DNA of 64,000 bases. It comes from Escherichia phage LH2. Below the pieces are notes generated by a model. It saw nothing but the letters and a program-made list of their open reading frames with translations. It searched no databases and was not told where the DNA came from. Within the stretch, counting starts at the first letter, position 1, and each line of letters opens with the position of its first letter. Positions 6,164 to 61,098 of the stretch are shown here, one piece after another. Both the position numbers and the translations under genes were made by a program. The stretch lies in sequence record OQ378934.1; one strand, given 5' to 3'.

Positions 6164-6171
6164 TATAAATA
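6164..6171 (+). promoter_or_regulatory. Late promoter-like motif TATAAATA
   Basis: Exact octamer about 25 nt upstream of the ATG at 6197. Confidence 0.4.
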
Positions 6172-7102: not shown

Positions 7103-7125
7103 AGTCTCCTTCGGGAGACTTTTTT
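7103..7125 (+). terminator. Intrinsic terminator (UUCG-loop hairpin plus T-run)
   Basis: agtctcc-ttcg-ggagact followed by ttttt. Confidence 0.6.
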
Positions 7126-7135
7126 CATTTTACCG

Positions 7136-7165
7136 GTTTACTTTCCATTTGAGCTGTGATACTAT
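7136..7165 (+). promoter_or_regulatory. T4-type early promoter
   Basis: gtttac at 7136-7141; -10-like tactat about 18 nt downstream. Confidence 0.5.
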
Positions 7166-7193
7166 ACAACTATCGGATAAAGAGGAGAACATC

Positions 7194-7382
7194 ATGAAAA
7201 TTGAAGCACTTAATCAAGAAGGAAATATCTACGTCATCATTAATGGTGATTTTTTCGTCGACATGGATGAAGTTACCAGTGAAGAACTTGAAAAACTTCT
7301 TAAGAAACGTTATGATATGTGTGATGAAGCTGCAACTCATATGGCGTGTGCAATATTCTCTCTTTCATATGTGGTGGAATAA
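7194..7382 (+). CDS. Hypothetical protein
   Basis: SD GAGGAG then ATG 7194; 62 aa. Confidence 0.5.
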
Positions 7383-7947: not shown

Positions 7948-7977
7948 GTTTACAAGCTGGCAAGGTTATGGTATAGT
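7948..7977 (+). promoter_or_regulatory. T4-type early promoter
   Basis: gtttac 7948-7953; tatagt 7972-7977. Confidence 0.5.
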
Positions 7978-8112
7978 AATCTTGTCAACTGCCAAGGAGA
8001 AGAGAATGAAAATTTTGTTTGTTGTGTATGTGATGATTCAATATAATTACCCAATGTTTACTTATAATCTAGTGAACAACATTATTGATATTATTCAAAG
8101 GAGTATGTAATT

Positions 8113-10672: not shown

Positions 10673-10674
10673 TA

Positions 10675-10699
10675 GGGAGCCTTCGGGCTCCCTTTTTTT
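10675..10699 (+). terminator. Intrinsic terminator
   Basis: gggagc-cttcgg-gctccc followed by ttttttt. Confidence 0.65.
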
Positions 10700-10704
10700 A
10701 TTTC

Positions 10705-10787
10705 AAAAAATTTTCACAAAACAGTTTACAAGCATAAAGCTTTATGGTACTATACAACTATCAACTGATACGGATTTGGAGAATAAA
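10705..10787 (+). repeat. Promoter-leader cassette (PeSL-like), copy A
   Basis: gtttac at 10724-10729 ... tggtactatacaactatcaac ... ttggagaataaaATG; same core as copies at 12163, 37471, 56551. Confidence 0.6.
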
Positions 10788-12162: not shown

Positions 12163-12220
12163 GTTTACAAGACTGTTCCTCTGTGGTACTATACAACTAT
12201 CAACTACGGAGGAACAGAAA
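12163..12220 (+). repeat. Promoter-leader cassette (PeSL-like), copy B
   Basis: 42 nt (gtttacaagactgttcctctgtggtactatacaactatcaac) identical to 37487-37528. Confidence 0.6.
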
Positions 12221-15121: not shown

Positions 15122-15150
15122 TTTACTTTGCCACAAGGATGTGGTATAAT
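15121..15150 (+). promoter_or_regulatory. T4-type early promoter
   Basis: gtttac 15121-15126; tggtataat ending at 15150; near-identical copy at 61069. Confidence 0.55.
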
Positions 15151-18390: not shown

Positions 18391-18924
18391 CAATTGAAAA
18401 AGAAATTGAAGGATTGATTCATAAAACTAATAAAGACCTTTTGAACGAGAATGCTAATAAAGATTCTCGTGTTTTTCCAACTCAACGGGACCTTATGGCT
18501 GGTATTGTGTCTAAACACATTGCCAAAAATATGGTTCCGTCTTTTATTATGAAAGCGCATGAAAGCGGAATTATTCACGTGCACGATATTGATTATTCCC
18601 CTGCTCTTCCATTTACTAATTGCTGTTTAGTCGATTTAAAGGGGATGCTTGAGAATGGATTTAAATTAGGCAATGCTCAAATTGAAACGCCTAAATCGAT
18701 CGGTGTTGCTACTGCAATTATGGCACAAATTACTGCACAGGTTGCTTCACATCAGTACGGCGGAACGACTTTTGCTAATGTAGATAAAGTACTTTCTCCT
18801 TATGTTAAACGCACCTATGCAAAACATATTGATGATGCAGAAAAATGGCAAATCGCTGATGCGTTGAATTATGCTCAATCTAAAACAGAAAAAGATGTCT
18901 ATGACGCGTTCCAGGCGTATGAGT
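18387..18924 (+). CDS. nrdD: Anaerobic ribonucleotide reductase NrdD, exon 1
   Basis: Class III RNR N-terminal region; ORF runs into a stop inside the intron; exon ends with U at 18924. Confidence 0.85.
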
Positions 18925-19135
18925 TAATTTAATTCAGGCTCATGTAAAACCGGTCTAAACGGGGAACCTCTCTAGTAGACAATCCCGTGCTAAATGTTCT
19001 TTTGAACTAAATGCCTAACGACTAACCGTGATGAATGTAGCGGTGTAGAATAGAAGCTAATGCTATTCGAAACGGCCGGCATCGAAAGATGAAGATATAG
19101 TCTAATCTGCATGGCGACATGCAGCAGTCATCTTG

Positions 19136-37470: not shown

Positions 37471-37550
37471 AATTTTTCACAAAGCTGTTTACAAGACTGT
37501 TCCTCTGTGGTACTATACAACTATCAACCAATACAAATTTGGAGAATGAA
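37471..37550 (+). repeat. Promoter-leader cassette (PeSL-like), copy C
   Basis: Contains the 42-nt block identical to 12163-12204 and the ttggagaatgaaATG leader. Confidence 0.6.
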
Positions 37551-43551: not shown

Positions 43552-43580
43552 TTTACAAGCTGACAAGACTATGGTATAGT
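43551..43580 (+). promoter_or_regulatory. T4-type early promoter with palindromic -10 region
   Basis: gtttac 43551-43556; tatagt 43575-43580 inside acaagact...agtcttgt inverted repeat. Confidence 0.5.
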
Positions 43581-43609
43581 AGTCTTGTTGGTTAAATGAG
43601 GAGATCGTT

Positions 43610-46236: not shown

Positions 46237-46887
46237 GTGAATTACCAAAAAATTTACTCGGCTTTAATTACAAAAGCTAAATGCCGGCATCTTGGCGGAT
46301 ATAAAGAACGCCATCATATAATTCCTAGATGTATAGGAGGAGCAGATGACAAAAACAATCTTGTTGAGTTAACTGCGCGTGAGCATTTTATAGCTCATAG
46401 ATTATTAACTAAAATATATCCAGATGTGAGAGGATTGCATTATGCTGTAAATTTAATGCGATATAATAAAGGTGTTAAATTAACAAGTAGATTAATAGAA
46501 ACTCTTAAAATCCAAAACTCTGTTCTTTTCTCGGGTGAAAATAATCCTAGATATGGCAAGCCGTCATGGATTAAAGGCAAAAAGACCCCAGAAGAAACTA
46601 AAGCCAAAATGCGTCTAGCTCATAAAGGTAAAATTATATCCGATGAAGCCAAGGCTAATATGAGTAAAGCCCGAAAAGGAAGATTTAGCGGTAAAAATTC
46701 GCCTCGATACGGTTTACCAAATCCTAGGCGAGGAGAAATATGGAATAGTTATGATGCGCTTTATGAATTATGGGTTTATAATAATAGACCTAAGCGCACA
46801 AAATTTAATAAAATAGCTGTCAAGGCAGGTTATCCTAATATCTGCTATAGACATATGATAGAAAACTTCATAAGAAAGGAAAAATAA
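46237..46887 (+). CDS. Freestanding HNH homing endonuclease (Mob-like)
   Basis: GTG start; HNH motif ERHHIIPRCIGGADDKNNLVELTAREH; NUMOD3-like repeats; between 61 and 56. Confidence 0.75.
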   Translation: MNYQKIYSALITKAKCRHLGGYKERHHIIPRCIGGADDKNNLVELTAREHFIAHRLLTKIYPDVRGLHYAVNLMRYNKGVKLTSRLIETLKIQNSVLFSGENNPRYGKPSWIKGKKTPEETKAKMRLAHKGKIISDEAKANMSKARKGRFSGKNSPRYGLPNPRRGEIWNSYDALYELWVYNNRPKRTKFNKIAVKAGYPNICYRHMIENFIRKEK

Positions 46888-46888
46888 C

Positions 46889-47407
46889 ATGCCACATTTC
46901 AACGAATGTAGTCATCTGATCGAAGGCGCTGATAAAGCTCAAAATGAATACTGGGATATTCTCGGTGATGAAAAAGACCCGCTGCAGGTTATGCTTGATA
47001 TGCAGAAATCTTTGCAGGTTCGTTTAGCTAAAGATAAACCTGAATATAACCGTCATCCTGATGATTTGGCTACTGCAGGTGAAGTTGTTGATTGGCTGCG
47101 TAATCAGAAAGATTATATTGACGATGAATTCCGTGAACTTCTAACTTCTCTTGGCGGTATGAGCAATGGCGAAAAAGATGCATCTGCTGTATGGAAGCCT
47201 TGGAAGTCACAGCATGGTGAACGCCGTGAAACTCTAATTACTGATTTGTCTCCACAAGACCAGTTGGAAATTAAATTCGAAATGATTGATATTCTTCATT
47301 TCGTTCTGAACATGTTCCAAGGTCTCGGCCTTACTGCTGAAGAAATCTTTAAACTTTATTATCTGAAGAATGCTGAAAACTTCGCTCGTCAAGACCGAGG
47401 TTATTAA
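46889..47407 (+). CDS. 56: dCTP pyrophosphatase gp56
   Basis: 172 aa; MPHFNECSHLIEGADKAQNEYWDILGDEKDPLQVMLDMQ... matches T4 gp56 as recalled. Confidence 0.88.
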   Translation: MPHFNECSHLIEGADKAQNEYWDILGDEKDPLQVMLDMQKSLQVRLAKDKPEYNRHPDDLATAGEVVDWLRNQKDYIDDEFRELLTSLGGMSNGEKDASAVWKPWKSQHGERRETLITDLSPQDQLEIKFEMIDILHFVLNMFQGLGLTAEEIFKLYYLKNAENFARQDRGY

Positions 47408-47451: not shown

Positions 47452-47459
47452 TATAAATA
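47452..47459 (+). promoter_or_regulatory. Late promoter TATAAATA for soc
   Basis: Exact octamer about 30 nt upstream of soc ATG. Confidence 0.6.
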
Positions 47460-47489
47460 ATCATGTAATTTAAATAAAAGGAGAATTAC

Positions 47490-47735
47490 ATGGCTAGTAC
47501 TCGCGGTTATGTTAACATCAAAACATTTGAGCAGAAATTAGATGGAAATAAGAAAATTGAAGGAAAGGAAATTTCTGTAGCTTTCCCTCTTTATTCTGAC
47601 GTTCACAAAATTTCTGGCGCTCATTACCAGACATTCCCTTCAGAAAAAGCAGCATATACTACTGTATATGAAGAAAATCAACGTGATGCATGGATTGCTG
47701 CAAACGAAGATTTGTGGAAAGTAACTGGTGAATAA
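47490..47735 (+). CDS. soc: Small outer capsid protein Soc
   Basis: 81-aa ORF; MASTRGYVNIKTFEQKLDGNKKIEGKEISVAFPLYSDVHKISGAHYQTF... matches T4 Soc. Confidence 0.88.
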   Translation: MASTRGYVNIKTFEQKLDGNKKIEGKEISVAFPLYSDVHKISGAHYQTFPSEKAAYTTVYEENQRDAWIAANEDLWKVTGE

Positions 47736-47740
47736 ATTCA

Positions 47741-47765
47741 AGGACTCCTTCGGGAGTCCTTTTTT
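47741..47765 (+). terminator. Intrinsic terminator after soc
   Basis: aggactcc-ttcg-ggagtcct followed by ttttt; part of a module repeated at 7103. Confidence 0.65.
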
Positions 47766-47775
47766 CATTTTACCG

Positions 47776-47805
47776 GTTTACTTTCCAAAATGAGTATGGT
47801 ATAAT
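47776..47805 (+). promoter_or_regulatory. T4-type early promoter
   Basis: gtttac 47776-47781; tataat 47800-47805. Confidence 0.55.
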
Positions 47806-47831
47806 AGAATTATCTTATAGAGGAGAACACT

Positions 47832-48044
47832 ATGTTAAATCGTTGGATTAAACCAAATGAAGACCTCCAGAAGGTTCTTGATAAAGCTATCTCTGATAAA
47901 TGGGGTATGAAAAGCTGGGATTGTGATATCGTCACGCATTCATTCATGATGCATGCAGATGGTTCAGTCGAGTTCAATGCTGAAATGCGATATACTGACT
48001 GGGGTGGATTTCAAAGAGTCGAATTTCAAAGAGGATTTTTGTGA
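47832..48044 (+). CDS. Hypothetical protein
   Basis: 70 aa; SD GAGGAG. Confidence 0.5.
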   Translation: MLNRWIKPNEDLQKVLDKAISDKWGMKSWDCDIVTHSFMMHADGSVEFNAEMRYTDWGGFQRVEFQRGFL

Positions 48045-55954: not shown

Positions 55955-55984
55955 GTTTACAAACTCTTGGGACCAGAGTATAAT
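55955..55984 (+). promoter_or_regulatory. T4-type early promoter
   Basis: gtttac 55955-55960; tataat 55979-55984. Confidence 0.5.
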
Positions 55985-56028
55985 GGTCCCGTGGAGTATA
56001 AAATCTTTTTAACAAGTGAGAGATAACT

Positions 56029-61069: not shown

Positions 61070-61098
61070 TTTACTTTACCACAAGGATGTGGTATAAT
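61069..61098 (+). promoter_or_regulatory. T4-type early promoter (near-identical to 15121-15150)
   Basis: gtttac 61069-61074; tataat 61093-61098. Confidence 0.55.

Follow-up and report, generated by a model that had tools for sequence, protein, structure and literature searches.

The closest described systems are the PeSLs (promoter-early stem-loops), cassettes of T4-type phages known from the work of Arbiol et al. in 2010 (PMC2839356) and of Comeau et al. in 2014 (PMC4122927). In the latter, a PeSL consists of a stem-loop, an early promoter and a Shine–Dalgarno (SD) sequence with ATG, and is repeated in hyperplastic regions; the PeSLs of the PST/T4 pair are given a promoter of the form TTTACW-N17-TAYWAT and a stem of the form AGNA-loop-TCNT (PMC4122927). 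The former reports that promoter and terminator activity was shown by lacZ reporters in phi1/RB49, and describes subclasses according to whether the hairpin lies upstream, between the promoter boxes or over the -10 box (PMC2839356). It also discusses Repoila et al. 1994, for whom the T-even internal-protein (IP) loci are flanked by conserved promoter/terminator elements (PMC2839356). The early promoters of T4 possess a GTTTAC -35 consensus at positions -36 to -31 (PMC1524935), and their consensus as a whole is unusually long (Hinton 2010, PMC2988021).

Here, "the window" refers to the whole 64,000-nt stretch of Escherichia phage LH2 (OQ378934.1) that was analysed. It belongs to a Tequatrovirus, shares 98-99% identity with such phages as vB_EcoM_SA20RB and KIT06, and carries its early genes on the + strand. 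We will distinguish between site A, located between rI.-1 (Pfam DUF5856) and mobD.5, and site B, located between soc and mrh.2. The ORF at 47490-47735 (stop codon 47733-47735) was identified as soc by a Pfam Soc match with an E value of 9e-53. On the opposite strand, the two sites are overlain by short ORFs (46 and 42 aa) that lack annotated counterparts.

An exact 28-mer, TTTTTTCATTTTACCGGTTTACTTTCCA, is found at 7120-7147 and again at 47760-47787, that is, two matches in the window where none is expected; a third copy with up to three mismatches was not found in the window, and 100 shuffles gave no matches. A sequence-only reading of this stretch had claimed that a terminator-promoter module occurs twice, the second time after soc, and both the 28-mer and the Pfam identification of Soc agree with this; the hairpins (Table 1) lie within a few bases of where that reading put them. 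It had proposed that the two regions be aligned and that identity in the hairpin stem alone would speak against a repeated unit. Local BLAST within the window aligned 7106-7147 with 47745-47787 at 95% identity over 43 columns with one indel (E ~8e-13), and the identity is not confined to the stem: it extends from the hairpin core CTCCTTCGGGAG through the T-tract and spacer to the -35 hexamer and the five nucleotides that follow. The outer bases of the stems are unlike (AGT...ACT at site A vs. AAGGA...TCCTT at site B), as are the 17-nt spacers that separate the -35 box from the -10 box and the -10 hexamers themselves (TACTAT vs. TATAAT). Likeness returns at the SD block AGAGGAGAACA, which precedes the ATG at both sites.

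Table 1. Features of sites A and B and of the transcription units upstream of them in the window
Site	Feature	Position	Strand	Remark
A	Late promoter TATAAATA ahead of rI.1-rI-rI.-1	6164-6171	+	T4 late promoter annotated in SA20RB
A	rI.-1 ORF, 128 aa	6712-7098	+	Stop codon 7096-7098
A	Hairpin AGTCTCC-TTCG-GGAGACT	7103-7120	+	Begins 5 nt past the rI.-1 stop codon
A	T-tract T6 (7120-7125) and spacer CATTTTACCGG	7120-7136	+	Inside the exact 28-mer
A	Early promoter: GTTTAC(T) 7136-7142, N17, TGa 7157-7159, -10 TACTAT 7160-7165	7136-7165	+
A	Predicted transcription start	~7172
A	SD block AAGAGGAGAACA and mobD.5 ATG	7180-7196	+	ATG 7194; gene 7194-7382
B	Late promoter TATAAATA ahead of soc	47452-47459	+
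B	Hairpin AAGGACTCC-TTCG-GGAGTCCTT	47740-47761	+	Begins 4 nt past the soc stop codon
B	T-tract T6 (47760-47765) and spacer CATTTTACCGG	47760-47776	+	Identical to site A
B	Early promoter: GTTTAC(T) 47776-47782, N17, TGg 47797-47799, -10 TATAAT 47800-47805	47776-47805	+
B	Predicted transcription start	~47812
B	SD block TAGAGGAGAACA and mrh.2 ATG	47818-47834	+	ATG 47832; gene 47832-48044

The order of the parts is the same at the two sites. Site A runs from the rI.-1 stop codon through the hairpin, T6, CATTTTACCG, GTTTACT, an N17 ending in TGa, TACTAT and AAGAGGAGAACATC to the ATG of mobD.5, and site B from the soc stop codon through the hairpin, T6, CATTTTACCG, GTTTACT, an N17 ending in TGg, TATAAT and TAGAGGAGAACACT to the ATG of mrh.2. 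The hairpins fold with -10.8 kcal/mol (z -4.69) at site A and -15.1 kcal/mol (z -4.33) at site B, and in neither case were any of 200 shuffles as stable. As is typical of intrinsic terminators, stems of 7 and 9 bp, respectively, are followed by T6 on the transcribed strand; a T-tract on the opposite strand was not found at either hairpin. A generic terminator scan called 7103-7120 terminator-like. At site A the T-tract and spacer could act both as the U-tract of the terminator and as the region from about -52 to -36 (the UP zone), if positions are counted from the -10 box. Some records of relatives already annotate a terminator and a promoter; in the case of phages SA20RB and fPS-90, the equivalents of site A are labelled "rho-independent terminator" and "T4 early promoter." A search of the window against Rfam returned nothing at site A or B; the only match was a group I intron at 18893-19109 (+) (RF00028, 52.1 bits, E 2e-10).

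Judged by these sequence features, sites A and B are very probably PeSL-type cassettes, a kind of element that is already known. Both are intergenic between ORFs of the same orientation and begin just past the upstream stop codon, and both have a stable stem-loop beside the promoter, which places them in the subclass with the hairpin upstream of the -35 box. The promoters read TTTACT-N17-TACTAT (A) and TTTACT-N17-TATAAT (B), each with a TGn, and are followed by the AGAGGAGAACA SD and the ATG of the downstream gene. Such cassettes are repeated in the genome, mainly in variable early (hyperplastic) regions, and several of those on the + strand of the window have hairpins in the published positions. 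Of the insertion, deletion or exchange of flanking genes that goes with such cassettes among close relatives, exchange is seen at site B, in the combinations of soc and mrh.2 allele types and in a different downstream gene in more distant relatives. Site A varies little in ~500 genomes; its flanks are conserved, and shuffling of them was not observed. What is observed, then, comprises a repeat, its fold, its motif architecture, conservation in ~500 genomes and a mosaic pattern among relatives.

The repeat is neither peculiar to this phage nor of recent origin as a duplication; both sites are present in T4, T2 and ~500 relatives, and the class has been published as PeSL. Segmental duplication that included genes was ruled out, the upstream proteins being mutually unrelated and the downstream proteins likewise. 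Since the flanking proteins of A and B are unrelated, what is repeated is the cassette alone, an intergenic region of ~95 nt. An autonomous mobile element might be expected to have terminal inverted repeats, target-site duplications or a nuclease that is encoded by or associated with it and specific to the repeat (e.g., MITE-like or homing elements). The cassette does not fit this description: the hairpin is the sole inverted repeat and the flanks of A and B share nothing outside the cassette.

The hairpin should be considered separately from the rest of the cassette. C(UUCG)G tetraloop terminators are reportedly frequent in the intercistronic regions of T4, an observation said to go back to Tuerk et al. 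in 1988. The + strand of the window has 16 CTTCGG motifs, and the 18-nt hairpin GGACTCCTTCGGGAGTCC was found in 107 instances in IMG/VR phage contigs, where it stands before early-like promoters, late-like promoters or none. These IMG/VR loci (L164-L265) include many large phage contigs, often with two or three copies of GGACTCCTTCGGGAGTCC per genome, nearly always followed by a run of T, sometimes past one extra paired C. With so many copies in unrelated phage contigs, the hairpin alone is weak evidence of relatedness. Genome searches with the cassette gave three matches per genome, the third of them not inside the window. In T4 (strain GT7, 130,280-130,380; L267 16280-16380) this third match is a further copy of the site B hairpin, the identical GGACTCCTTCGGGAGTCC with T6, after gene 30.9; it is fused to another early promoter, CACAAAGTTG-TTTACA, ahead of gene 30.8. 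Hairpin and promoter are thus separable parts. The hairpin alone is generic, and it is the T-tract, the spacer and the -35 block that define the A/B repeat.

Metagenomic scans added little to this picture. The loose pattern CTTCGGG-N-TTTTT-N-GTTTAC matched at least 120 loci, nearly all of them unrelated terminators; L066 was the sole T4-like locus among the matches listed, and new contexts of the cassette were not found among these. IMG/VR scans with relatives of Soc, relatives of rI.-1 and the exact spacer retrieved only a handful of Tequatrovirus contigs. The comparative work is therefore based on the GenBank phage collection.

On the + strand, a scan of the window for TTTAC-N-TAnnnT identified 17 early-promoter cassettes, all of them intergenic, and these provide the background against which the likeness of A and B can be assessed. 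The exact run shared by A and B (29 nt) is the second longest among the 136 cassette pairs, for which the median is 9 nt; the longest, 42 nt, belongs to the pair 12164/37488, and 15122/61070 and 7949/43552 are further near-identical pairs. Hairpins lie upstream of the promoter (A, B and 10725), within the -35/-10 spacer (15122 and 61070) or over the -10 box (7949, 43552 and 55956). The -10 and initial transcribed region of site A, TACTATACAACTATC, is common to the promoters at 10725, 12164 and 37488, and the cassettes are accordingly mosaics of a few interchangeable blocks.

Several of these cassettes deserve a description of their own. The exact 42-nt repeat GTTTACAAGACTGTTCCTCTGTGGTACTATACAACTATCAAC (12163-12204 and 37487-37528), longer than the A/B repeat, is a complete early promoter from the -35 box to the start site that precedes two different genes, and 10725 shares its -10/leader half. 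The near-identical early promoters at 15122-15150 and 61070-61098 have the hairpin CCACAAGGATGTGG within the -35/-10 spacer and correspond to the PeSL subclass with the stem-loop between the promoter boxes. In the early promoters at 7949-7985, 43552-43590 and 55956-55995, a long hairpin (-14.7, -18.9 and -19.7 kcal/mol, respectively) holds the -10 box in its loop or stem; the core of the first has 89% identity with that of the second. At 10674-10730, a C(UUCG)G terminator, AGGGAGCC-TTCG-GGCTCCCT with T7 (-16.2 kcal/mol), has an early promoter ~30 nt downstream, a looser spacing than at sites A and B.

One might ask whether A and B arrived independently at an optimal CUUCGG hairpin joined to an extended T4 early consensus, in the absence of common descent or exchange. 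The 107 copies of GGACTCCTTCGGGAGTCC before many different downstream signals in unrelated contigs and the 16 CTTCGG motifs of the window would be in keeping with this, as would the unusual length of the T4 early consensus (PMC2988021). Against it, A and B are 58% identical over the 45 nt upstream, vs. a median of 33% between cassettes, and identical over the 18 nt that adjoin the -35 box. Neither the 11-nt spacer CATTTTACCGG nor TTTCCA after the -35 box is found in any of the other 15 early promoters, several of which have TTTTCACAAAGTTG in place of CATTTTACCGG. The same two-base and one-base spacer variants also turn up at both loci in different phages, as described below, and we consider convergence very improbable. 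Some positions common to A and B are absent from all the remaining 15 early promoters in the window, and these mark the two as a repeated unit and not as two matches to a consensus, which is what the sequence-only reading had proposed. Its description of each copy as a UUCG hairpin terminator with a GTTTAC early promoter is supported by the folds, the T6, the agreement with GTTTAC-N17-TGn-TAYWAT and the annotation of relatives. The terminator-promoter repeat is thus confirmed as real, and that interpretation is supported as essentially right at the level of sequence.

The C(UUCG)G hairpin with U6 on the + strand would be an intrinsic terminator that ends the upstream unit, rI.1-rI-rI.-1 at site A and soc at site B, each of which has its own late promoter (Table 1). 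The transcription unit from the late promoter at 6164 may accordingly be taken to end at terminator A, and a soc unit of ~300 nt from the late promoter at 47452 to end at terminator B; a mapped 3' end is mentioned for the soc transcript of T4 (PMC3014915). The hairpin probably also shields the 3' ends of the upstream transcripts. The T-tract and the 11-nt spacer lie in the upstream zone, rich in A and T, of a strong early promoter of the T4 type, GTTTAC-N17-TGn-TAYWAT, from which the sigma-70 RNA polymerase of the host could restart transcription right after infection, ~20 nt before the strong SD and the ATG of mobD.5 or mrh.2. The terminator would keep late transcription and early read-through of rI and soc out of the early genes that follow, and mobD.5 and mrh.2 would have an immediate-early start of their own at the promoter. 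If the hairpin terminates and the promoter restarts, the cassette would insulate neighbouring genes from each other transcriptionally.

A different view of the hairpin is that it serves chiefly as a stabiliser or processing signal of RNA 3' ends, or as a DNA target of a recombination protein or of another DNA-binding protein, and that the promoter is simply adjacent. Arbiol et al. speculate that a recombination protein might bind PeSL stem-loops (PMC2839356), and the soc hairpin is better conserved across genera than the Soc coding sequence: in distant T4-like phages the hairpin is kept where Soc is only 50-65% identical, and the promoter and gene that follow differ. However, a run of T5-T7 always comes directly next on the transcribed strand and is missing from the opposite strand, which is the signature of an intrinsic terminator and would be needless for a DNA-binding site. 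The site B stems found in 20 genomes, GGACTCC/GGAGTCC vs. GGAATCC/GGRTTCC, are partly compensatory, and the change from GGACTCC/GGAGTCC to GGAATCC/GGATTCC argues that selection acts on RNA pairing and not on a DNA sequence as such. Stabilisation is in any case compatible with termination, and we find it very unlikely that the hairpin acts mainly in one of these other ways; termination remains the preferred reading.

Further observations concern the neighbourhood of soc. At 47452-47492 an inverted repeat, GTAATT...AATTAC, comes after the late promoter TATAAATA and spans the SD of soc; it agrees with a report that long early transcripts have their soc translation masked (PMC3014915). Directly upstream of gene 56 (dCTPase, 46889-47407), at 46237-46887 (+), is a 216-aa ORF that has HNH and NUMOD3 motifs and is probably a homing endonuclease. 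T4 has the GIY-YIG endonuclease gene segF between 56 and soc; segF is absent from the LH2 window. In RB32 the soc terminator (site B; L270 2790-2830) has the loop UCCG, not UUCG, in an otherwise conserved stem.

The two sites vary to very different degrees among relatives. Site A is near-invariant, with at least 95% identity over 106 nt in 493 of 507 records. T4 differs from the window here by one extra T in the T-tract and by single bases in the -35/-10 spacer and downstream, and T2 is identical over the hairpin, T-tract, spacer and -35 block and differs by one base in the -35/-10 spacer. Site B, on the other hand, is polymorphic, and the exact window type accounts for 92 of ~503 full-length matches. 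T4 has CATTTAAATGG at site B where the window has CATTTTACCGG. Among 20 genomes, the final ~50 nt of site B (-10 box, leader and SD) are almost fixed, and variation falls in three small blocks: the stem, with the pairs given above; the spacer, which comes in seven variants; and the 6 nt past the -35 box, which read TTTCCA vs. ATATCA or ATGTCA. Spacer and post-35 types are found in all four combinations (window, SfPhi01, T4 and SHFML-11), and the three blocks fail the four-gamete test. On either side of the cassette, at least four allele types of soc and two of mrh.2 (~86% identical) occur in all combinations.

This pattern must be weighed against the possibility that a single recent event in the lineage of this phage, an ectopic gene conversion, placed the T-tract, spacer and -35 block of site A onto site B, which would then not be an old shared cassette. 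The near-invariance of A, with the T2 block equal to that of the window, and the polymorphism of site B would fit such an event. So would the distribution of differences between the site B sequences of T2 and the window, seven out of 28 in the shared block and only two in ~50 downstream; at all seven positions the window has the state of site A. T4 site B differs from A by three clustered bases. Yet the A-like spacer is present at site B on at least three soc allele backgrounds and both mrh.2 backgrounds, so that either it is old or ordinary recombination has spread it; there are intermediate haplotypes (T4, SfPhi01 and slur07); and even the most divergent site B alleles retain the hairpin-T-tract-GTTTAC layout, which makes the site B cassette old regardless. 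We would treat a recent conversion as a real possibility, although not the favoured one; it is a matter of history alone and does not conflict with the functional reading given above, a terminator-promoter cassette at both sites.

A chimeric query, in which the flanks of site A were combined with the T4 site B spacer, picked out RB32, RB33 and SYGD1. RB32 has the spacer CATTTAAACGG at its site A, a variant that slur07 and L004 carry at site B, and SYGD1 has at its site A the spacer CATTTTACTGG, which VIPECOOM02 and Shfl2 carry at site B. Homogenisation within a genome was ruled out as the rule, the site B spacer of RB32 itself being CATTTTATGG, unlike its site A. The simplest explanation of multi-base variants shared by two loci at a distance of 40 kb is that cassettes occasionally undergo ectopic exchange within the phage population, although parallel selection for an A-rich -40 to -44 region could partly account for them. 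We tentatively propose, as a possibility somewhat short of probable, that paralogous terminator-promoter cassettes of T-even phages exchange short patches by ectopic gene conversion across co-infecting genomes, and that promoter-strength variants (e.g., the A-rich spacer CATTTAAAC/T vs. CATTTTACC) would in this way spread between unrelated loci as a common stock of regulatory alleles. What the published PeSL work puts forward is the shuffling of genes at cassettes; it does not propose that the cassettes evolve in concert. The spacer variants common to two loci are a modest new element and the only point that goes beyond the literature consulted; if confirmed across the population, regulatory cassettes themselves would evolve in concert.

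The same ~30-45 nt are found at several sites and throughout the related phages, and for this reason the cassette could also act as a homology patch, by which the T4 recombination machinery would swap flanking genes and, occasionally, transfer sequence from one cassette copy to another. For A and B, the roles in termination, initiation and recombination put forward here draw on sequence and literature together, and the comparative data fit the idea of PeSLs as recombination linkers, with support mainly from site B. The main use of the result lies in correct annotation, in which A and B should be recorded as probable transcription-unit boundaries, which would end the rI and soc units and restart early transcription for mobD.5 and mrh.2. 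In addition, the ~20 genomes illustrate how a conserved regulatory linker of ~100 nt lets T-even phages reassort the alleles of neighbouring genes.

How do the two sites compare with the systems already described? Like PeSLs, they are intergenic composites in which a stem-loop terminator is followed by a stretch rich in A and T, then by an early promoter and by the SD and ATG of the next gene, are repeated in the genome and conserved among relatives, lie in variable early regions and are linked to the exchange of flanking genes. Site B fits the PST/T4 form exactly in promoter and stem, whereas site A fits in the promoter only, and its stem, AGTC...GACT, departs from the AGNA/TCNT description. 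The original PeSLs of RB49/phi1, with TTGACA-type promoters and polyG/polyC stems, are unlike A and B. The mini-circle excision published for PeSLs cannot apply to this pair, since the two sites are ~40.6 kb apart with essential genes between them.

The hairpins show no difference of substance from C(UUCG)G tetraloop intrinsic terminators: C(UUCG)G closes a G+C-rich stem of 7-9 bp, U6 follows, and the structure begins 4-5 nt past a stop codon. The promoters resemble T4 early promoters (GTTTAC -35, extended -10 and UP-like region, according to Miller et al. 2003 as cited by others) in GTTTAC, N17, TGn, TAnnnT and a T/A-rich upstream region, and also in their orientation and distance to the downstream early ORF. 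T4 early promoters are usually A-rich at -40 to -44, whereas the upstream region of A and B, which doubles as the terminator tail, is T-rich. Finally, the linkers of the Botstein-Campbell model and the elements at the IP loci are, like these cassettes, short conserved intergenic regulatory sequences that serve as crossover points, where divergent alleles or genes can be swapped with regulation left intact, a behaviour seen at site B as the full set of soc by mrh.2 allele combinations. Those models concern exchange at one locus, and to this sites A and B add the sharing of spacer variants between two distant loci.
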